The notes under the pieces: generated by a model
What the model was told of the DNA's origin: nothing
Seen by the model: the letters and a program-made list of their open reading frames with translations, nothing else
Database searches by the model: none
Position numbers and translations under genes: made by a program
Source of the DNA: a virus
Taxonomy: Duplodnaviria; Caudoviricetes
Length of the DNA: 64,000 nt
Direction: 5' to 3' (one strand)
IMG/VR virus record: IMGVR_UViG_3300025789_000018
In this document: positions 1 through 29,595 of the stretch, in pieces
Layout of the letters: each line of letters opens with the position of its first letter
Position numbering within the stretch: the stretch's first letter is position 1

Positions 1-619
1 CAGCTTCAACAGCTTCCGTGATTTCGATCATTTTGTTCTGAGCGATTTCAGGAAAGTTGAAGTCAATGTCGATTTCGTAGGTAGGAAAAGTATCGATGTT
101 ATAGATGTGATATTCAGGATAATGAATATCAAACTCACCGACAGGAAGCCAGCGAGTAGTTTCATCAGCAAAGACGACCTTCACTGCAAACACAACAAAC
201 ATCTTGTCCAGACCAGTAAGAGCAACACCCTTTTGGATATTACCACCGCACCATTCTCCAAACACTGCAACTTTGGTAATAATCTGATCAGGTAAAAAGA
301 TTTCAATCATAGCTTGATCGACAACATCACGAATAACTTCTTCATGCTTCATCATAGCAAGCATGAAGCCAGCGTTATCAGAAGTCAAAGACAGTTCACG
401 TTCACGCGACTGGTAGCTAATAGTGTCGGTGGCAACGTCATACACGATACCAGCATTGGTACCATGCAGCTTGACAGTACCATAAAACTTCAGCGTAGGA
501 AGCGGGCGAGAATGATCATACACAGCATTGCCATCAGCATCCTTGCCAGCATACCGCGTATGGTTCTTGACATGATGAATCGTGGAACGGAACTGTTCGA
601 TAGAAGGAAACTTAAACAA
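1..619 (-). CDS. RNA ligase 2 (Rnl2)-like nucleotidyltransferase, 3' end runs off the window
   Basis: Not in the ORF track; manual translation from TTG at 619 (AAGGAG SD 7 nt upstream): MFKFPSIEQFR...GTVKLHGTNAGI (motif I KxHGxN)...VFGEWCGGNIQKG (motif III). Frame stays open to position 1. Confidence 0.8.
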   Translation of the reverse strand, partial: MFKFPSIEQFRSTIHHVKNHTRYAGKDADGNAVYDHSRPLPTLKFYGTVKLHGTNAGIVYDVATDTISYQSRERELSLTSDNAGFMLAMMKHEEVIRDVVDQAMIEIFLPDQIITKVAVFGEWCGGNIQKGVALTGLDKMFVVFAVKVVFADETTRWLPVGEFDIHYPEYHIYNIDTFPTYEIDIDFNFPEIAQNKMIEITEAVEA

Positions 620-803
620 GTGCAATCTCCTTTTCTTTGCATGGCATATTATGCCCCGTATTAAAATCTACGATATATGGAAAGGGCTGCCATTCTTCTA
701 GAACATCAATAACTTTGCCTACTTGAAGTTCATCAACTTCAGCACCAATGTTTTGAACAGCATATACACTATCACCAATCTTAAACATAATCTTCATCCT
801 CAA
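612..803 (-). CDS. hypothetical protein
   Basis: 63-aa ORF co-oriented and overlapping its neighbours. Confidence 0.55.
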   Translation of the reverse strand: MRMKIMFKIGDSVYAVQNIGAEVDELQVGKVIDVLEEWQPFPYIVDFNTGHNMPCKEKEIALV

Positions 804-1770: not shown

Positions 1771-1799
1771 ATACTACCTTAACCGGACTGAGAAGTCAA
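1771..1799 (-). promoter_or_regulatory. sigma70-type early promoter
   Basis: TTGACT-17-TAGTAT upstream of the ATPase. Confidence 0.6.
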
Positions 1800-2263
1800 G
1801 TGATATATTTGATGTTCGTAAACCCTTCGCCATTGCTCGGAGGAACATAAGAATCTCGCATCCTATCGATAGCATCTTGAGGAATATTCTTTCCTGGCCG
1901 AGAATTCAGTCGGCGCTGCCATTCATCCCAACTTGGAGTAGCGAACACAACAGCATCGATCTGATAATCATATGGCTTTAGGAAATTGATATACTTCGCT
2001 CGACTCTTTTGGCTGAGGTTTGTACGATCGATGACGAAATCAACACCTTCATCAACAGACCACTGAATGTGTTTCCACATAACAGTCTCGGCAAACTTAA
2101 TAAGATCTTTGAATCCCTCATTGTATGTCATGTTGTATATGTTAGAGACATACTCAATAACAGTATCAGTAGACATGACATTAGCCATGGGATCGTGGTG
2201 TTTAATCCATGTTGACTTCCCAGAAGCAGGTACACCGATAAGGATAGTACAGGTCTTAGTCAT
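1796..2263 (-). CDS. polynucleotide-kinase-type (AAA_33) P-loop kinase, stand-alone kinase domain
   Basis: GVPASGKST Walker A, STD, VIDRTNLS...R motifs as in the T4 PseT kinase domain; no phosphatase domain. Confidence 0.75.
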   Translation of the reverse strand: MTKTCTILIGVPASGKSTWIKHHDPMANVMSTDTVIEYVSNIYNMTYNEGFKDLIKFAETVMWKHIQWSVDEGVDFVIDRTNLSQKSRAKYINFLKPYDYQIDAVVFATPSWDEWQRRLNSRPGKNIPQDAIDRMRDSYVPPSNGEGFTNIKYIT

Positions 2264-2423
2264 CTTCTTTTTCCTTCAATAGATTGCGAGTTCGTTCCAC
2301 AATACAGTTGCCTTTGTCTTCCAAAAAATGTGCCTGACAATAGCCATGATGATCATGATGACACGGTTCATCATGAATGTCAAGCCATTCTTGCAAGAGT
2401 GCAGACATTTCCTTTTTAGACAT
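2256..2423 (-). CDS. hypothetical protein
   Basis: 55 aa from MSKKEM; His/Cys cluster CHHDHHGYCQAH. Confidence 0.55.
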   Translation of the reverse strand: MSKKEMSALLQEWLDIHDEPCHHDHHGYCQAHFLEDKGNCIVERTRNLLKEKEDD

Positions 2424-2562
2424 CTTTGTTCTCCAACCGCTGCTTGATGATAGCAATCGTTTCATCAAGAAACTCGTGAGAAGAGGTGCCATCCATCTTA
2501 ATCATAAACTTTGCAAGTTCAAGACGATCAAGTGCAAGTTTTAAAAGTTCTCTATCAGTCAT
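2416..2562 (-). CDS. hypothetical protein
   Basis: 48 aa from MTDRELL, coupled to the ligase stop. Confidence 0.5.
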   Translation of the reverse strand: MTDRELLKLALDRLELAKFMIKMDGTSSHEFLDETIAIIKQRLENKDV

Positions 2563-3124
2563 TATAAGCCAATCCCGGAAACCAAGCATCACGAATGGCT
2601 TCATACTTTGCCGTGCGACCAAGGTTATTACGGATCGTATTGCGAACAGTATCATAGACCTTAGACTTATCTTCCCAACAACTAAACACCGTAGAACGAG
2701 TGTACTGATCAAAGTTAGGAGCAATATCTAGAGCAAAAGTTTTACGATCTATACCCTCATCTTCAATCCGTTCTAGGATATGTTCAATAGAAAGACATTT
2801 AAATGCAACTTCAATGTTGTAATAATGCTCAAACTCAGACAGCCGATCACGATCTTCGGCAGGCAGATGAGCCTTGATGTCATCCAGCTTTTCATCCAGA
2901 ATGATTTCAACGATGTTGCGATCTTGTAGAATTGCTTCCTTTGCACGATGAATCTGGAGATACCACTGACACTTCAATTTCAACATATGTCCATCATCAA
3001 AGCGAACCACGAATCCTTCAAGGTCTTCCAGATCACGAACGTATTCAAGGAAAGCCTTCATATCATTCTGAGGTTCGAATGCACGAACTACAGGGATATT
3101 ATATCGAGAAATAAGATTAAACAT
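2555..3124 (-). CDS. rnlA: RNA ligase 1 (T4 gp63/RnlA-like), C-terminal fragment
   Basis: EGFVVRFDDGHMLKLKCQWY = motifs IV and V (T4 [20 protein letters not shown]); ATG at 3124 overlaps the stop of the upstream small ORF. Confidence 0.8.
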   Translation of the reverse strand: MFNLISRYNIPVVRAFEPQNDMKAFLEYVRDLEDLEGFVVRFDDGHMLKLKCQWYLQIHRAKEAILQDRNIVEIILDEKLDDIKAHLPAEDRDRLSEFEHYYNIEVAFKCLSIEHILERIEDEGIDRKTFALDIAPNFDQYTRSTVFSCWEDKSKVYDTVRNTIRNNLGRTAKYEAIRDAWFPGLAYND

Positions 3125-3332
3125 TATGAAATTCCGATTCTTCAATATGGAACTGAGGTACCCAGTCACCTACATTTTCTCCGACATCGCGCATCACGTC
3201 AATCCAATCTTGGGACTTCTCACGCTCCCAATCACCTGCAGCTTTCGCGGCATCATAGGTTTCATACACTCCAAACACATACCGATCGCCGTTATAATCA
3301 GTTTCGTCCTTGATAAGTACAAAAACTTTCAT
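3117..3332 (-). CDS. hypothetical protein inside the ligase-splitting cassette
   Basis: 71 aa MKVFVLIKDE..., GGAG SD, directly downstream of a TTGACA/TATACT promoter. Confidence 0.65.
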   Translation of the reverse strand: MKVFVLIKDETDYNGDRYVFGVYETYDAAKAAGDWEREKSQDWIDVMRDVGENVGDWVPQFHIEESEFHNV

Positions 3333-3356
3333 GTCAATCTCCATTCCTTATAGTTT

Positions 3357-3385
3357 AGTATACCACGGTTTTGGAAAAATGTCAA
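3357..3385 (-). promoter_or_regulatory. sigma70-type early promoter driving the small ORF and ligase C-fragment
   Basis: TTGACA-17-TATACT. Confidence 0.8.
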
Positions 3386-3392
3386 CTATTTT

Positions 3393-3460
3393 TATAAATA
3401 AGATGGCTGTCGCGGTATCCCCATACCCACAGCCTCTAACGCTAAACAGGAGCATCAGCT
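3393..3460 (+). promoter_or_regulatory. T4 late promoter plus conserved structured leader of the endonuclease
   Basis: TATAAATA, then stem GGCTGT/ACAGCC enclosing CGC-GGTAT-CCCC-ATACC-C, then TCTAA and AGGAG; same architecture at 11852-11914. Confidence 0.7.
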
Positions 3461-4087
3461 ATGGGTATTTATTGTACGTATCTTATCACATATAAAGGCA
3501 ACAAACTGCCGCCATTCTATATCGGATCGTCTAATATTAATAGATTAGAAGAAGGATACAGAGGAAGTGTATCTTCTGTTAGATATGGTAAGATATGGAA
3601 ACAAGAATTAAAAGAAAATCCTCATCTATTTAAATATCATATAATCACTACTCATGATACTAGAAAAGAAGCAACAGAAAAAGAACTTCAACTACAAATA
3701 ACCTTTAAGGTCATGCACAACCCAATGTATATTAATGAATCATATGCTAGAATTAATGGAGTTCATGGGTTATCTTTATCTGGTAAGAATCATTGGTCTA
3801 AACAACCAGGAAAACTTCATAATGCTAAGATAAACCATCCTAGAGGAATGCTTGGTAAGAAACATACAGATGAATTTAAGCAATTTATTTCAGAAGTTCA
3901 AATTGGTGAAAAGAATCACTTTTATGGAAAGAAACATTCACCCAAAGCTTTAGAGAAAATGAGAATAGCGGCATCAAATACCATATGGATTACCAATGGT
4001 ATAGATTCAACTCGACATCCTAAAGATGCCGCTATTCCAGAAGGTTGGTTTAGAGGTCGTCGCTTAAAGAAGCATATTGACCAGTAA
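3461..4087 (+). mobile_element. free-standing GIY-YIG homing endonuclease (Seg-like) with NUMOD3-type modules, antisense to the host gene
   Basis: IYCTYLIT...FYIGSS...YRGS N-terminus; GMLGKKHTDE and FYGKKHSPK NUMOD3 repeats. Confidence 0.85.
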
Positions 4088-4682
4088 CCATATGACGAAT
4101 AGCAGTTAATGTTAGAGTAGGTTCTTTACCATAATCAATTACAATACGCTTTTGAGGATGCATCCATTCAAAAATTGGAGTGTGTCCGTTATTAATTACA
4201 TCCCAGCAAAATGCTTCATAATCAATATCTGACAACTTTACAAATTGTTTAATCATTTCATGAAAATCTTGAGCAACCATTTTGGTGCCCCAGATAAGTT
4301 TACCTTCATGAGCAAAAACTGAGCACATTGATCCGTCTAGCTTCTCAAGGATAGCATGAGGGCGCGAAAGATCAATGACATGCTCCTGCGTCTCCTCACG
4401 CTCATTCACATTGAAGAACTTGTGGAAAGGACGACGGATGATGTCACCAGTCTTGGAGTCGAAGATGATACCACGAAGTTCGCGACGAATCTTAGCATTA
4501 AAGTTCGTAATTGGTATCCCAGAGATAGTAGTAGAGTTTACATCAGGAAACGTATCAGCCATCATCACGTTGTAGTTGATGACGGTATATGACCCTTTAT
4601 CGGCGACTACAAACTCATCGCGACCTTCAATGGCAGGCAGCACATCAGCGATGTTGGTGATGTGGGGAAATTCATAATTCAT
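4050..4682 (-). CDS. rnlA: RNA ligase 1 (T4 gp63/RnlA-like), N-terminal fragment
   Basis: RELRGIIF, RPFHKFFNVNE, motif I EKLDGS, TPIFEW, LTAIR; stops prematurely inside the antisense endonuclease gene. Confidence 0.85.
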   Translation of the reverse strand: MNYEFPHITNIADVLPAIEGRDEFVVADKGSYTVINYNVMMADTFPDVNSTTISGIPITNFNAKIRRELRGIIFDSKTGDIIRRPFHKFFNVNEREETQEHVIDLSRPHAILEKLDGSMCSVFAHEGKLIWGTKMVAQDFHEMIKQFVKLSDIDYEAFCWDVINNGHTPIFEWMHPQKRIVIDYGKEPTLTLTAIRHMVTGQYASLSDDL

Positions 4683-4705
4683 TATATATCCTTTCAATTA
4701 CGCTT

Positions 4706-4734
4706 ATTATACCCCCACATCACACTAATGTCAA
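4706..4734 (-). promoter_or_regulatory. sigma70-type early promoter
   Basis: Perfect TTGACA-17-TATAAT. Confidence 0.85.
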
Positions 4735-4740
4735 GCGGTA

Positions 4741-5325
4741 TTAATCGTGGCTGTAATCCTCAATGATAACCTTTTCTGGCGTGAGGTAGACAGCAACGTG
4801 ATCGCCGTAGACTTCCTGTAGCACATCTTCATTATCGTTCAGCAACTTAACAAACGCAGAAATCTTCTTGTCATAACCAGGAAACTCTTCAAACTGGTTT
4901 TCAAGTCGCGCAATATATTTGAGATAGTATCCTTTAGCCCAATCGCTTACATTTGGTTGATTAAGCTTTTTCTTGTACTTAAGAAGTTGATCTTCAAGAG
5001 ACATATGACCAAAACCTACACATTCCAAAGTCTTGTATTCATCATCTTCTTCGTATTCATATGGATCCTTCAGATCATCTACATCAAATCCATCAACAAT
5101 AAAATGCGGATCATTGATACGGAATACACATTCTTCACCATCGTTGAAGTATGGAGTGTACTGCGACCAAACAACAGCCTGAACCTTGGGGCATTCCTCA
5201 AAGAACAACTTGATGATCTCGTTAAACGACGACTGAAGTTCCTTCATATGCGCCTTCTTAAGAGCATCGATTTCGGCATTCTTTTCAGCAATCTTCTTGG
5301 TAATATTATCAAAAGCACTCATCAC
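4741..5325 (-). CDS. hypothetical protein
   Basis: 194 aa; WxQYTPYFNDGxxCxF motif typical of large-phage early proteins. Confidence 0.7.
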   Translation of the reverse strand: MMSAFDNITKKIAEKNAEIDALKKAHMKELQSSFNEIIKLFFEECPKVQAVVWSQYTPYFNDGEECVFRINDPHFIVDGFDVDDLKDPYEYEEDDEYKTLECVGFGHMSLEDQLLKYKKKLNQPNVSDWAKGYYLKYIARLENQFEEFPGYDKKISAFVKLLNDNEDVLQEVYGDHVAVYLTPEKVIIEDYSHD

Positions 5326-5732
5326 TTCACCCTTTCATAAACAGTTTTGGTAATCACATATCTTCATCAGTCAATTCTTCGTCGGTCGTTGAAATTTGCC
5401 CTTTCTCGCTTTTTGTTCTAATCTGGAAAGAACAACTCTCTCTAATTTTTCTACAGTGTCCACTCCAAAAACAGTATCGGGATCGGCGGCTGTACCATCA
5501 TTGCCACCGGTTCTAAAGATTATCAGCGGCAAATCAAGATCCTCTGCCAGTTTCCGGGCGAGATCAATAGCATTACTTGTCATTTTTGTTGGCAACAAAA
5601 CGACGACTGAAGTTCCTTCATATGCGCCTTCTTAAGAGCATCGATTTCGGCATTCTTTTCAGCAATCTTCTTGGTAATATTATCAAAAGCACTCATCACT
5701 TCACCCTTTCATAAACAGTTTTGGTAATCACA
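5224..5732. repeat. 135-bp perfect direct repeat (5224-5358 and 5598-5732) flanking a 239-bp unique insert
   Basis: Base-by-base identity from AAACGACGACTGAAG to GGTAATCACA in both copies. Confidence 0.9.
5371..5598 (-). CDS. hypothetical protein encoded by the insert between the repeats
   Basis: 75-aa ORF (probable start MTSNAIDL). Confidence 0.4.
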   Translation of the reverse strand: MLPTKMTSNAIDLARKLAEDLDLPLIIFRTGGNDGTAADPDTVFGVDTVEKLERVVLSRLEQKARKGKFQRPTKN

Positions 5733-5959
5733 ACTTCTTTGGGAGTTACTTCATGGATTTCAGGATCATCGTAGTAGTAATCGGTGTAATACGATCCCGA
5801 ACGACACTCTTCAATTTCGTAGTACGTATCTTCAATCTTTATAATTGAAGTACAATAAGAACGCTTACCTTGATCGATCCAATCACCAACTTCAATTAAT
5901 TCGCATTCAGGATCTTCCTCCTGAAACATTTCAATGATTTCTTGTTTACTGTAAGCCAT
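5696..5959 (-). CDS. hypothetical protein
   Basis: 87-aa acidic ORF in a coupled string. Confidence 0.65.
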   Translation of the reverse strand: MAYSKQEIIEMFQEEDPECELIEVGDWIDQGKRSYCTSIIKIEDTYYEIEECRSGSYYTDYYYDDPEIHEVTPKEVVITKTVYERVK

Positions 5960-6309
5960 CAGTCGACCAACCTTTCTTCACGACGCTTCTTTGCTCCACC
6001 AGACATCCAAGGTTGCAATTCTATTTTACCTAGCCAATCTGATACTTCAGGAATAAAGCCAAGATCTTCTTGAATGTGTTCTTCTGCAAGGTCACGAACA
6101 GATACATCCTTTCCTTGCGCATTGGTGATGTATGTGCCGAAAATGCGTTCAGCCATATAACAACCAAAAGAGCTATGGAGAATTGCACGATGCCGAACAT
6201 CAGGCATGGCAATCTTTGATGAATCAATAAATTCATGGATGGGCAGATAGTCCTCTACACACCCACCATGACGCTTTACCGAAACTTTAGCGTGAATGAG
6301 AGGCTTCAT
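5959..6309 (-). CDS. conserved phage protein (DUF6915-like)
   Basis: HAKxSVKRxGG...YxxIH..IDxSK...RHRxxLH...HIxEDLG pattern. Confidence 0.65.
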   Translation of the reverse strand: MKPLIHAKVSVKRHGGCVEDYLPIHEFIDSSKIAMPDVRHRAILHSSFGCYMAERIFGTYITNAQGKDVSVRDLAEEHIQEDLGFIPEVSDWLGKIELQPWMSGGAKKRREERLVD

Positions 6310-6575
6310 TCTTCAACACCCAAAGCACGCGCGAGACCTGAGCGAACCCGTTCTGGGTCCCAATTGATGATCTTACCTGTATCAAGATCAATATCCAAGA
6401 TCAGATAATCGCCCCAATGGTCTCCGGGAAAGAACGAAGGAACATAACCCTCTTGTTCTTTAACGACCTCACCCGTATCATCAAGATACTGATAAAAGCC
6501 TTCATCACGAACCTTAACGTGGACACAAACAGTCTTGATATCAACATCAACAGGCTTTGAGATAGAAACTTTCAT
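6306..6575 (-). CDS. hypothetical protein
   Basis: 89 aa; GYVPxFFPGxHxGDYxxLxIDxxTGxIxNW phage motif. Confidence 0.7.
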   Translation of the reverse strand: MKVSISKPVDVDIKTVCVHVKVRDEGFYQYLDDTGEVVKEQEGYVPSFFPGDHWGDYLILDIDLDTGKIINWDPERVRSGLARALGVEE

Positions 6576-11851: not shown

Positions 11852-11914
11852 TATAAATAAAGTATCAGTCGCGGATGGCCGTCCCACTGATTCTAATCTT
11901 ACTAGGAGACCAGC
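11852..11914 (+). promoter_or_regulatory. T4 late promoter plus conserved structured leader (second copy)
   Basis: TATAAATA; stem ATCAGT/ACTGAT enclosing CGC-GGAT-GGCC-GTCC-C; TCTAA; AGGAG. Confidence 0.7.
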
Positions 11915-12469
11915 ATGACTATTTATTACGTTTACGCATACATTAATAAGAAAACAGGACTGCCATACTATATTGGCAAAGGCAAAAATAAAAGAGCTTA
12001 TTCCAAACATCATGGGATTTCAGTACCTAAAGATACTACAAAAATAGTATTTTTAGAAAGAAACTTAACAGAACTTGGAGCATTTGCTCTTGAGCGCAGA
12101 TACATTCGTTGGTATGGAAGAAAAGACATAGAAACAGGAATTCTTTTAAATAGAACAGATGGGGGTGAGGGAGCCACAAATACTGTTCGAAAAAAAGGAA
12201 TAAAAATGTCTGAATCTGCCAGAATTAACATAAGAAACGGACAATTAAATTCTCCCAACAAGAATAATAATAGAAGCAAAGCAGCAAACACAAATAAAAT
12301 AAAATATGGAGTAGTTACCCCGTTACAACAAAAATACGTAATAGAAAAAGTGGCATTAAAAAATAAACAAAGAAATTCAATTATAGATACCTGCCCTCAC
12401 TGTAATAAAGTCGGACAATTAGTAGCTATGCAAAGATGGCATTTTGATAATTGCAAACAAAACAAATAA
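11915..12469 (+). mobile_element. free-standing GIY-YIG-family homing endonuclease, antisense
   Basis: YYVYAY...[33 protein letters not shown]; C-terminal CPHC...RWHFDNCK. Confidence 0.8.
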
Positions 12470-20936: not shown

Positions 20937-21566
20937 CTAAATACCTCTTTTTTTACCATTCTGAGAAACAAACTCTTCAAGCAAATCAGAACATCTAGTT
21001 ACAAAGTTTGATTTTGTATACTTATAGTCAACTATTGTGACGAACTTTTCCCATCCATATTCACAATAAATCTTATAATATTCTCTATAAACTTCTATAT
21101 TTTTTAATCTGCGAAGTTCTAGTTTTGATTGAGATTTGATCTTTTGTTTCTTAACTCTACCTTTATTCCAACCAGTTGGTACCACAGAATCGATTGTTAT
21201 TTTCTTGGAAATAACACCATCATTTATCCACATGGTTCCAAACTGAGAGTTGCCCGAGCCAGATTGAGATTCTGACATTACTTTACTAAAACTTCTTCTT
21301 ATCCAACCATATAACTTATTTGAAGAACGATTGGGTATCATCATCTGAGCGGCCATAATCAACTTAAAGTTGTTAGGATATATTTTCACCAAAAGTTGAT
21401 GTGCCACATAGTGTTCTTCTGGGGTTAGATATACCAGATTTGATTTATCATCAGAACCACCCATACAACGAGGAACAATATGATGTTCTTCATAATATGT
21501 TTGGTCATCTCTGAATCTATTAAGACCCCGATCAATGAGTGATTTGTATATCTTCTGGTAATCCAT
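20937..21566 (-). mobile_element. free-standing HNH homing endonuclease (MobE-like)
   Basis: MDYQKIY...YYEEHHIVPRCMGGSDD..NLV.LTPEEHYVAH.LL.KIYP. Confidence 0.88.
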
Positions 21567-21576
21567 GAGCAATCCT

Positions 21577-27778: not shown

Positions 27779-27786
27779 TATAAATA
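27779..27786 (+). promoter_or_regulatory. T4 late promoter
   Basis: TATAAATA upstream of the plus-strand structural gene. Confidence 0.7.
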
Positions 27787-27831
27787 GATGGAAGATACAC
27801 TCTTATTTTGATAAATAAAGGATTCGAAAAT

Positions 27832-29595
27832 ATGGCACAGTTTACCGTTGTTAACTCAGCATTCTTAGCAAGTAATAAATCTATCTTTGACGTCGTTATG
27901 TTAGCAGGGGCCAATGGTGGTCTACTTTCGCAAACAACAATGGCTAATGGTTTCCCAATTTCAGGAACCTCAACTTATCTAAATGCTTACCCACCGCAGA
28001 GAATGAATGACGCTCTAGGTCGTGTAAGAATTGCAAAACACCAAAACATCTATGAAGCTGACTTCGAATATGGTCTACAGCCTCTTCGTTGGGAAGCCTT
28101 CACATATAATACAGGCGCTGCTGGTGCGCAGTCATCAATTACTGCACGTTCAGACCTTGGTGGTGTTCAGATGACAATCGGTAACACTGCTGGTGATACC
28201 ACAATCCGTCAGTCTCGTCCATATCAGCGTTATCAGCCAGGTAAGACCATGTTCATGGCTACTGCTATGTGGTTTGGTCCAGCAGCTAACGGACAGCTAC
28301 AGCGCGTAGGCTTCTTTGATGACGGCAACGGCATTTTCTTTGAGCAGGCTAATACAGTTGCAGGCACAACAACAGGAACAAACAACGGAACTGGTATGGG
28401 TGTTGTTCTTCGTTCGGATGTGAGCGGTCTACAATACGCAAACTCCACTCCAGGACAGTATCCGTTCAATACAGACACTCGTATCGAAATGAGTGACTGG
28501 AATGGCGACAAGGCAATTATCAATAGCATTAACTGGAACTCAATCCAGATGATGTGGATGGAATACACATGGTATGGCGCAGGATGTGTGCGTTGGGGTG
28601 TATTCCTTGATGGACAGCCTTACGAACTTCACCGCATGGCAATGGGCAACAAGACTGCAACAAGCACATATCTAGCAAACTCAAGCCCATGGGCAAGAAC
28701 AGGAAACCTGCCTGTTCGTTATGAACAGAGAAACGTTACCAACCAAGCTGGCGCTGGTGCAATCAATAACATGTATCACTTCGGCGTATCGGTTATGGTT
28801 GAAGGTGGTGTTGACCCACAGCGCGGATTTACCTATTCGTATGGTATGTCACCGCAGACTCCACGCAGAACCATTAACGCGGGTGTAACTCGTTATCCTG
28901 TTCTTACAGTCCAAGCCCGTCCTATGGGAACGCAGGAATATGGTTCTCCTGGTCAGGGTATTACCAGCAACTCGGCAATTACTTCGGGTAACTCAACATC
29001 GATTACTGTAACTGGTACTCCTTGGACAGCTAACCAATGGACAGGCCGTTGCATCTATTTCTCGAACAGCAGCGGCGGTAAAGCTATTGCAAGAATTACA
29101 TCAACTAACGCTACATCGATTACGTTCCAGGACAACGTCCTTGGCACAGCAAACTCGACTGGTGTTCCTGCTGGTCTAACTGGTGCGGGTAACACCTACA
29201 TTATTGGTCAGCCTAATCGTGGACAGCTACTTCCGCAGCAGCTTCTTGTATCTTCTGATGCTCTTTGTGTTGTTGAGCTTATCGCTGGCTCACAGGTTAA
29301 CTCTCCTGTAACTCTATCGAACGCCTCGTTTACTCCAATGACAAGCCTTGGTTCTGCTTATTCATTCGGTACTAGAGACGTTTCGGCTAACTCTATGTCT
29401 GGTGGCGAAGTTACCATGGCGTTTACCGCTCCCGCAGGTGGATCTGGTCTACAACAGATTGACTTGAGCAACTTCTTCCCTCTATATAATAATATTAGAG
29501 GATCTTCACCAGATACGCTGACCGTTGCTGTTACTACATCTTCGAGTGCAGCTAACGTTGGTGTTCACATTATTGGTCAGGAAGCTATGTCTTAA
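27832..29595 (+). CDS. probable virion structural protein (G/T/N/S-rich, beta-rich)
   Basis: Late promoter; RQSRPYQRYQPGK...QRVGFFDDGNGIFFE...WYGAGCVRWG block typical of myovirus structural proteins. Confidence 0.7.
   Translation: MAQFTVVNSAFLASNKSIFDVVMLAGANGGLLSQTTMANGFPISGTSTYLNAYPPQRMNDALGRVRIAKHQNIYEADFEYGLQPLRWEAFTYNTGAAGAQSSITARSDLGGVQMTIGNTAGDTTIRQSRPYQRYQPGKTMFMATAMWFGPAANGQLQRVGFFDDGNGIFFEQANTVAGTTTGTNNGTGMGVVLRSDVSGLQYANSTPGQYPFNTDTRIEMSDWNGDKAIINSINWNSIQMMWMEYTWYGAGCVRWGVFLDGQPYELHRMAMGNKTATSTYLANSSPWARTGNLPVRYEQRNVTNQAGAGAINNMYHFGVSVMVEGGVDPQRGFTYSYGMSPQTPRRTINAGVTRYPVLTVQARPMGTQEYGSPGQGITSNSAITSGNSTSITVTGTPWTANQWTGRCIYFSNSSGGKAIARITSTNATSITFQDNVLGTANSTGVPAGLTGAGNTYIIGQPNRGQLLPQQLLVSSDALCVVELIAGSQVNSPVTLSNASFTPMTSLGSAYSFGTRDVSANSMSGGEVTMAFTAPAGGSGLQQIDLSNFFPLYNNIRGSSPDTLTVAVTTSSSAANVGVHIIGQEAMS

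Follow-up and report, generated by a model that had tools for sequence, protein, structure and literature searches.

An RNA ligase 1 gene in two pieces around an antisense homing endonuclease cassette in an uncultured T4-like phage

Whether a phage RNA ligase whose gene has been cut in two by an antisense endonuclease gene can still be a working enzyme is the question raised by one locus in a 64,000-nucleotide stretch of DNA (IMG/VR record IMGVR_UViG_3300025789_000018) from an uncultured freshwater T4-like phage. We call this stretch the window, and all coordinates are those of its full length. A first-pass annotation had described the locus as an RNA ligase 1 (Rnl1) gene in two pieces, with an active site assembled from two polypeptides and with the mobile cassette between the pieces supplying a promoter and translational coupling for the distal one. 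By sequence comparison, both open reading frames (ORFs) of the pair are parts of an Rnl1-type ligase, and the two-piece form very probably works as a two-subunit enzyme, because dozens of related phages have the same form, the catalytic residues being retained throughout.

According to the gene context, all genes in this part of the window lie on the minus strand, the antisense endonuclease ORF excepted. The upstream ORF of the pair, the N-half, matches the Pfam family RNA_lig_T4_1 (PF09511) with an E value of 4.6e-25 and 89.2 bits against a cut-off of 28.3; it covers positions 2–156 of the 227 in the profile, and the remainder of the profile falls in the downstream ORF, the C-half. The C-half itself has a weak match to T4_Rnl1_C (PF20819; E 5.9e-5, 23.8 bits, cut-off 27). 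When compared with T4 Rnl1 (2c5u) by phmmer, residues 68–208 of the N-half correspond to chain residues 53–195 in a weak match (E 2e-9), and residues 21–133 of the C-half correspond to chain residues 213–325 (E 1e-8). All the ligase motifs that the first-pass annotation had distributed over the two halves were located, I to IIIa in the N-half and IV and V in the C-half (Table 1). Among the residues that we take to be essential in T4 Rnl1 (R54, K75, F77, K99, D101, G102, K119, E159, E227, G228, K240 and K242), the alignment places equivalents of the first eight in the N-half and of the last four in the C-half. The predicted promoter ahead of the N-half is the top promoter match of the region. 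A megablast search of positions 2400–4800 against GenBank phages gave no match.

Essentially no ligase sequence has been lost at the split, as had also been claimed at first pass. In a tblastn comparison with Roseobacter phage DSS3P8, the match to the N-half stops at base 87613 and the match to the C-half starts at base 87614. The summed halves have 399 aa, as against 395–406 aa in close intact relatives, and they align end to end with 74 intact relatives from IMG/VR. The N-half ends in VTGQYASLSDDL followed by its stop codon and the C-half begins with MFNLISRYNIPVV, such that 7 residues follow the conserved TGQY of the former and 9 residues precede the conserved IPVV of the latter; the linker between TGQY and IPVV in intact relatives has 12–16 residues. 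The split maps to approximately residue 195 of T4 Rnl1, between motifs IIIa and IV. In an AlphaFold2 model of the intact allele L021, which is 71% identical to the joined halves (predicted local distance difference test, pLDDT, 88.4), the split point is a loop between the strand ending at Y212, which is the TGxY strand, and the helix at 215–225. This position is within the nucleotidyltransferase domain and ahead of the strands of motifs IV and V, and the model is all-helical beyond residue 270.

Table 1. Positions of the split ligase gene, its cassette and neighbouring features in the window
Feature	Position	Strand	Remarks
Early sigma-70-type promoter before the N-half (TTGACA-17-TATAAT)	4734..4706	-	12/12 consensus; predicted from consensus only
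Rnl1 N-half gene	4682..4050	-	210 aa; motifs I (EKLDGS, Lys114), Ia, III (IFEW), IIIa
Inserted cassette, ~0.93 kb	3125..4058		Boundaries uncertain by one or two codons; relatives contiguous here
Antisense free-standing homing endonuclease gene, GIY-YIG/NUMOD3 type	3461..4087	+	208 aa
Hairpin in the endonuclease leader	3405..3434	+	Covariation of outer stem
T4-type late-promoter-like box, TATAAATA	3393..3400	+	61 nt ahead of the endonuclease ATG
Internal early promoter, TTGACA-17-TATACT, TG before -10	3385..3357	-	11/12 consensus; predicted; for small ORF and C-half
71-aa DUF7336-type small ORF	3332..3117	-	PF24024, E 1.1e-4, below cut-off
Rnl1 C-half gene	3124..2555	-	189 aa; motifs IV (EGFV), V (KLK) and helical C-terminal domain
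Tract 100% identical to L088/L089 (contigs from other samples)	3435..4589		Leader, whole endonuclease gene, N-half codons ~32-210 (540 bp)
Stand-alone P-loop kinase (AAA_33), downstream of ligase	1796..2263	-	E 7.4e-20; syntenic with DSS3P8 gp106
Second ligase, Rnl2-type (PF09414)	2..625	-	E 4e-13; clipped by window edge

The plus-strand gene of the cassette had been read as a GIY-YIG gene with a late promoter. Its assignment to the homing endonucleases is borne out by a NUMOD3 match (E 1.8e-11, 44.2 bits, cut-off 20.4), by matches to the homing endonuclease families phrog_10820 (E 1e-29) and phrog_314 (E 1.5e-22) in PHROG, and by an identity of 35–40% to seg-like genes of T4-like phages. The GIY (residues 2–4) and YIG (residues 20–22) motifs are readable, though the GIY-YIG profile itself falls short of its threshold, as given below. 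A search of IMG/VR gave no close relative (at most 52% identity), and no solved structure was matched by sequence. The GC content is 0.29–0.33 over the endonuclease gene compared with ~0.42 around it. At their 3' ends the endonuclease ORF and the N-half share 38 nt (4050–4087) in tail-to-tail orientation, the last ~10 endonuclease codons being antisense to the N-half.

The box TATAAATA ahead of the endonuclease gene occurs in 14 copies in the window against 5.0 expected, and three of the three plus-strand copies are located just upstream of plus-strand ORFs. The outer stem of the leader hairpin changes on both sides in the leaders of W_11915, L094, L090 and L091 (alignment A3), and it is this covariation, not the folding energy, on which our support for the hairpin is based. 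To judge from these sequences, the late promoter and the hairpin leader are a portable module. In run X3, a 1622-nt contig (record 21) matches only 3393–3456 of the window, the summed contig depth is highest over 3431–3517, and loose ends at 3463–3472 lead into unlike sequence. The same covarying hairpin leader, with TATAAATA at 11852, is found elsewhere in the window at 11852–12469 (+), where it precedes a 184-aa ORF without a Pfam match (W_11915); this is probably another antisense late gene, and perhaps an unrecognised nuclease. A 595-aa ORF at 27779–29595 (+), also without a Pfam match, lies 29 nt downstream of a plus-strand TATAAATA. A further nuclease gene, on the sense strand, may be present in the tRNA gene cluster as ORF 20937..21572, where the endonuclease has a weak match of NUMOD3-like character at positions 21156–21290 (−), with 29% over 62 aa and an E value of 2e-4.

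Divergent from the late promoter, the cassette carries the early promoter of the first-pass annotation and the 71-aa ORF, whose stop codon overlaps the ATG of the C-half as ATGTTTAA; both are present as described. A terminator-like hairpin at 3513..3497 (−) was rejected as being at chance level (1 found, 1.6 expected).

The split form of the gene is found in relatives in a variety of architectures. Alleles L088 and L089, 96% identical to that of the window, carry the same nuclease. In L083 (81%) a clean 602-bp deletion, corresponding to 3411–4012 of the window, has removed the nuclease, and the N-half, the DUF7336 gene and a GTGA-coupled C-half remain. L091 has a different GIY-YIG gene (type B), followed by a DUF7336 gene and a GTGA-coupled C-half, and L090 has a type B gene followed by an unrelated 70-aa ORF and a TGATG-coupled C-half. 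An HNH nuclease and a 98-aa ORF separate the halves in L084, while L086 has an HNH nuclease only and is without an internal early promoter. L049 and L053, whose ligases are ~50% identical to that of the window, have type B GIY-YIG genes only, and L180 is without a nuclease and consists of a promoter, an 85-aa ORF and a C-half that overlaps it by 13 nt. The nucleases in the split alleles are all antisense and all overlap the 3' end of the N-half. A new observation is that what appear to be at least four unrelated nuclease families share a single site, namely two GIY-YIG types, HNH and a gene bearing a helix-turn-helix (HTH). The last is a 259-aa antisense gene at the split site of a 352-kb phage (L179:3105–3884, −) with faint HTH Pfam matches only; its C-terminal part contains a PD-(D/E)XK-like motif by eye without a profile match, and it may thus be a fourth nuclease type.

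The overlap of stop and start codons, ATGTTTAA in the window, also recurs: a coupled C-half is found in four alleles, as GTGA in L083 and L091, TGATG in L090 and 13 nt in L180, and three unrelated small ORFs are involved. The internal promoter and small ORF are common but not obligatory, because some split alleles are without either, and in alleles without the internal promoter the C-half would have to be transcribed by read-through from the promoter of the N-half. We rejected L178 as a nuclease-free split and did not count it, as its gene is contiguous and in frame with one TGA. This gene (L178:2501–3715), from an abundant ~155-kb phage represented by 24 contigs, has the TGA 12 codons past TGEY, and the next Met is 15 codons on, beyond the strand equivalent to IPVV; a nonsense mutation, read-through or recoding are all possible. 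In L008 there is a second copy of the first 37 Rnl1 codons (5087–5197, 76% identical) ~900 bp upstream of the full gene, which may be a trace left by another insertion close to the 5' end.

A length-limited search of metagenomes for proteins of the size of the N-half gave more than 100 clusters at 45–96% identity. Among the 120 clusters listed, 91 start at residue 1 and stop 3–11 residues past TGxY. The equivalents of R54, K75, K99, D101, G102 and K119 are present in all 91 of these split N-halves, and that of E159 in 90. Approximately 59 clusters of C-half size begin 7–20 residues ahead of IPVV; wherever the motifs are covered, the E and G of motif IV are invariant, and 72 and 73 of 74 sequences retain the two lysines of motif V. 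In comparisons with other split alleles by the Nei–Gojobori method, the ratio of nonsynonymous to synonymous substitution (dN/dS) is 0.07–0.24 for the N-half and 0.12–0.17 for the C-half, showing purifying selection. This is unlike the pseudogene-like decay that the first-pass annotation had named as refuting its proposal, and the genes-in-pieces interpretation gains from the diverged split alleles that keep their catalytic residues under selection and from L083, which is still split after deletion of its nuclease.

A structure prediction of the two halves alone placed them in a complex with an interface score (ipSAE) of 0.89 against 0.00 for the best control, a mark reached by 51 of 78 solved complexes and by 2 of 108 mismatched pairs. 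At least 96% of the contacts are shared among the three runs, and the partner pLDDT is 89. Residues 108–114 of the N-half (the motif I strand) are predicted to pair with residues 36–42 of the C-half (the motif IV strand), and residues 191–193 of the N-half with residues 10–13 of the C-half (the IPVV strand). By this model the halves are able to restore the known fold; it does not follow that they actually do so.

Several observations weigh against a working two-piece ligase mobilised by a GIY-YIG element. As the structure of T4 Rnl1 has been solved, the complex score may reflect only memory of it or likeness to it. The closest pair of alleles (96% identity) gives a dN/dS of 0.235 from only 27 changes. 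In L073 and L074, Rnl1 is reduced to its first 114 codons (72% identical), so that the ligase is dispensable in some relatives; because it can be lost there, selection on the window's own copy is deduced from its clade. The L073 remnant (6001–6408) ends just ahead of motif I, and the kinase gene is located ~1 kb further on. The Rnl2-type ligase, ~2 kb from the split gene in the window, might take over some of the function. The stretch is carried by 24 freshwater metagenome runs, none of them an RNA run. As to the cassette, the GIY-YIG profile (PF01541) scores only 14.4 bits against a cut-off of 22.6 (residues 4–82, E 0.048), and the hairpin is not unusually stable, with a fold-energy z-score of only −0.9.

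The history of the locus can be followed in its phylogeny. In the full-length tree the window, L049 and L053 stand in three separate well-supported clades. Based on N-half columns, the window, L083, L084, L086, L090 and L091 form one clade (Shimodaira–Hasegawa-like approximate likelihood ratio test, SH-aLRT, 99), and when database N-halves are added the window falls in a clade of 59 rows, starred in the tree, that are all split. On C-half columns the same six alleles scatter among intact ones, the window being placed with L022/L023, L083 with L006/L016 and L084 with L031/L033. Approximately unbiased (AU) tests reject monophyly of the six C-halves (p 1.4e-5) and, on N-half columns, reject the groupings of the C-half tree (p 5e-4 and 1.3e-7). 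Since the N-halves form one clade while the C-halves scatter among intact alleles, the N-half and the cassette seem to move as a unit. By the same sequence comparisons, the split was not made in this genome; its allele comes from an old clade in which all members are split, and it is recombinant at the cassette.

A more recent exchange is indicated by the tract that is identical to L088/L089 (Table 1), upstream of which, beyond 4590, identity falls sharply. The contigs of four DNA runs break at 3435–3463, 3041–3070 and 4589, and the 1155-nt piece 3435..4589 (run X3) and the piece 3041–3463 occur as separate contigs in other samples. One weak contig joint, from 3070 to 4326 in one run (side 30), may come from a related intact allele; it was too weak and was not used. 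We infer that 3435..4589 is a recent co-conversion tract and that gene conversion driven by the nuclease would carry the N-half along, recombination at nuclease genes being a published pattern (PMC10448857). It is an even call whether the mobile unit is the N-half together with the cassette. If so, the nuclease would cut intact rnlA in the N-terminal coding part and repair would impose the donor's resistant half, turning an intact gene into a two-piece one; the split site would then serve as a landing pad at which unrelated nucleases replace one another or vanish while the two-subunit ligase persists. In that case no other natural series so far would allow the entire life cycle of a gene-splitting selfish element to be followed as well as Rnl1 does.

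The 71-aa ORF belongs to a small family (18 clusters of close homologues, 73–94% identity) and has a dN/dS of ~0.07–0.09, which is that of a gene under purifying selection. L083 and L091 have an orthologue between their ligase halves; in L092–L097 the orthologue is located apart from any split ligase. In L092 and L093 the DUF7336 gene is ~500 bp upstream of an intact 383-aa Rnl1. In L094–L096 its neighbour is a 140-aa antisense gene that matches no family and has the same leader module, and in L097 it stands alone, with the same promoter and ribosome binding site, away from any ligase; in L094–L097 it is found among unrelated small early genes. No DUF7336 homologue was found adjoining the ligases of 82 loci. 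Because the same gene with its promoter and ribosome binding site occurs elsewhere in related phages, the internal promoter and 71-aa ORF are, by this comparison, a captured ordinary early gene and not parts of the endonuclease. The first-pass statement that the cassette supplies a promoter and coupling is refined accordingly: the signals are present and helpful and the coupling recurs, but they come from the captured gene and are absent in some split alleles. The 140-aa gene of L094 (2448–2870, −) shares the late promoter and hairpin leader and lies back to back with DUF7336, far from any ligase. Its NKGVSTPRSKESIEKQR stretch is NUMOD3-like by eye only, and the gene may be a degenerate nuclease and possible source of the composite cassette of the window.

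The 71-aa protein might be more than a passenger contributing a promoter and ribosomes, and might serve the split ligase as an assembly factor or as a third subunit. Its selective constraint, its presence between the halves in three alleles of differing nuclease state (the window, L083 and L091) and its position ahead of intact Rnl1 in L092 and L093 are in keeping with such a role, but other split alleles carry unrelated small ORFs (L084, L090, L180) or none (L086, L049, L053, L179), and the same gene occurs among unrelated small early genes, making this idea rather improbable. Less probable again is that insertion inactivated Rnl1 and that its ORFs are open only through recency, the work being done by the Rnl2-type ligase. 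In its favour are the decay of Rnl1 in L073 and L074 and the presence of the Rnl2-type gene 2 kb away; however, the window belongs to the all-split clade of 59 rows, catalytic residues are conserved in the 91 split N-halves down to 45% identity, dN/dS is low, the start codons and coupling of the C-half are conserved, and the split has outlived the nuclease in L083. That a single polypeptide is restored by a group I or II intron, by split inteins or by ribosomal bypass we find scarcely credible. Phage nuclease genes often ride in introns or inteins, and in "fractured genes" a free-standing nuclease gene is found between two gene pieces (PMC2677866), but here the nuclease gene is antisense, a stop codon follows 7 codons after TGQY and the gap of 930 nt is far too long for bypass. 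An intron was rejected on the antisense nuclease gene and on an Rfam search of both strands of 2000–5500, with E values up to 1, that gave no family match and no intron core. Split inteins were rejected as the halves sum to the intact length; the more than 100 aa that intein halves need cannot be accommodated in the 7 residues after TGQY and the 9 before IPVV.

A different origin with the same function would follow if the split were older than the nucleases, a two-cistron ligase having provided a harmless intergenic gap that free-standing nucleases later colonised, comparable to the intercistronic spacer of gene 43 in Aeromonas phage 44RR. Unrelated nuclease families at one site and split alleles free of a nuclease (L083, L180) would fit this, and a review has raised the same doubt for gene 43 of phage 25 (PMC2988022). 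Yet L083 can be seen to derive by deletion from a cassette like that of the window and is not a primitive state, and the ends of the N-half vary with the type of nuclease (tails of 3 to 7 residues). Type B GIY-YIG genes occupy the site in four ligase clades that are only 45–75% identical (L049, L053, L090, L091), which fits a nuclease that targets this gene. We consider an origin of this kind unlikely, if worth keeping in mind.

A genes-in-pieces Rnl1 ligase accompanied by a selfish cassette is in our opinion the probable explanation of the locus as a whole. The N-half, with motifs I–IIIa and the adenylated lysine, would be expressed from an early promoter and start codon of its own. The C-half, with motifs IV and V and the tRNA-binding helical domain, would be made separately from an mRNA that either starts at the internal early promoter or results from transcription reading through the cassette, and its translation would be coupled to that of the 71-aa ORF by the overlapping stop and start codons. 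The two polypeptides may then rebuild one nucleotidyltransferase fold by completing a shared beta-sheet, in which the motif I strand of the N-half would lie beside the motif IV strand of the C-half and create a composite active site, and the assembled pair would act as a ligase. The selfish cassette would comprise the antisense GIY-YIG/NUMOD3 homing endonuclease, presumably an active nuclease, with its T4-type late promoter and hairpin leader, and the captured small early gene fused to it would bring the promoter and the coupling. The N-half with its cassette would spread into other ligase backgrounds through gene conversion driven by the nuclease, and the nuclease gene would repeatedly be replaced or lost.

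Next to the locus, two 135-nt direct repeats that are 100% identical and 374 nt apart (5224–5358 and 5598–5732) span the 5' end of ORF 4741..5325 and the region ahead of ORF 5696..5959; they could be a recent duplication or a portable promoter/leader block.

Splits of enzyme genes by free-standing nucleases, with neither intron nor intein involved, are regarded as rare, and the RNA-repair ligase is not a singleton case. Its dozens of diverged alleles, with and without a nuclease, constitute a natural experiment, and they offer a nature-validated cut site, between motifs IIIa and IV, for fragment complementation of the nucleotidyltransferase fold. They can also show how selfish nucleases drag flanking host sequence along and replace one another, and how the distal half can regain expression through an ordinary early gene that a cassette has recruited. 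For annotation, the N-half and C-half ORFs of ~200 aa are at present called "RNA ligase" or "hypothetical protein" separately in metagenomes.

Among known systems, T4 Rnl1 (RnlA, gp63; PDB 2c5u, 5tt6) is a tRNA-repair ligase that works with Pnkp and consists of one 374-aa chain. The ligase of the window belongs to the same family and has the same set of motifs, and a kinase and a second ligase adjoin it, as expected of an RNA-repair set; unlike T4 Rnl1, it is encoded as two chains. The fractured genes of environmental phage-like DNA (Dassa et al. 2009, PMC2677866) likewise have a free-standing homing endonuclease gene between two gene pieces, and these pieces bear split inteins, but there are no intein halves here and the pieces must stay two chains. 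Closer, and textbook cases like Aeh1 nrdA/mobE, are the topoisomerase genes 39 and 60 of T4, which flank mobA, and the arrangement 43A / seg43(25) / 43B in Aeromonas phage 25 (PMC2988022); these are T4-like enzyme genes split at a nuclease gene, the nuclease of phage 25 being a seg-like GIY-YIG enzyme. For gene 43 of phage 25 it is debated whether the split pre-dated the nuclease (PMC2988022). Here the host gene is another one, and many alleles reveal the history, with an N-half clade that is all split, scattered C-halves and a nuclease-deleted derivative.

The first-pass annotation knew of no such split in an RNA ligase. Our literature search for split rnlA likewise found no paper, although subscription papers lay largely outside its coverage and a published report is possible; rnlA is not among the cases in a review of split phage genes (PMC2988022), and a 2023 paper cites "at least one instance", the Aeh1 reductase, of an enzyme gene split by a free-standing nuclease (PMC10448857). 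The latter, the "genes-in-pieces" ribonucleotide reductase nrdA-a / mobE / nrdA-b (Friedrich et al. 2007, as cited in PMC2988022 and PMC10448857), is similar to the window in that an enzyme gene of a T4-like phage is interrupted by a free-standing homing endonuclease gene, with neither intron nor intein, in that two separately translated polypeptides must rebuild a composite active site, as would be the case here, and in that a late promoter and a regulatory RNA hairpin go with the endonuclease, both predicted in the window. It differs in that the gene here is rnlA and not nrdA, and in that the nuclease is GIY-YIG and not HNH and is antisense to its host gene. The activity of the Aeh1 enzyme was demonstrated, whereas the ligase of the window is known from sequence alone. 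The cassette described here also carries a captured early gene that gives a promoter and a coupled start, and the split is widespread (~90 sequence clusters), with turnover and loss of the nuclease. The split Rnl1 gene is thus a new and widespread example of a known phenomenon; what it adds to the Aeh1 precedent is breadth, the turnover and loss of nucleases at one site, and the asymmetric travel of the N-half with its cassette.

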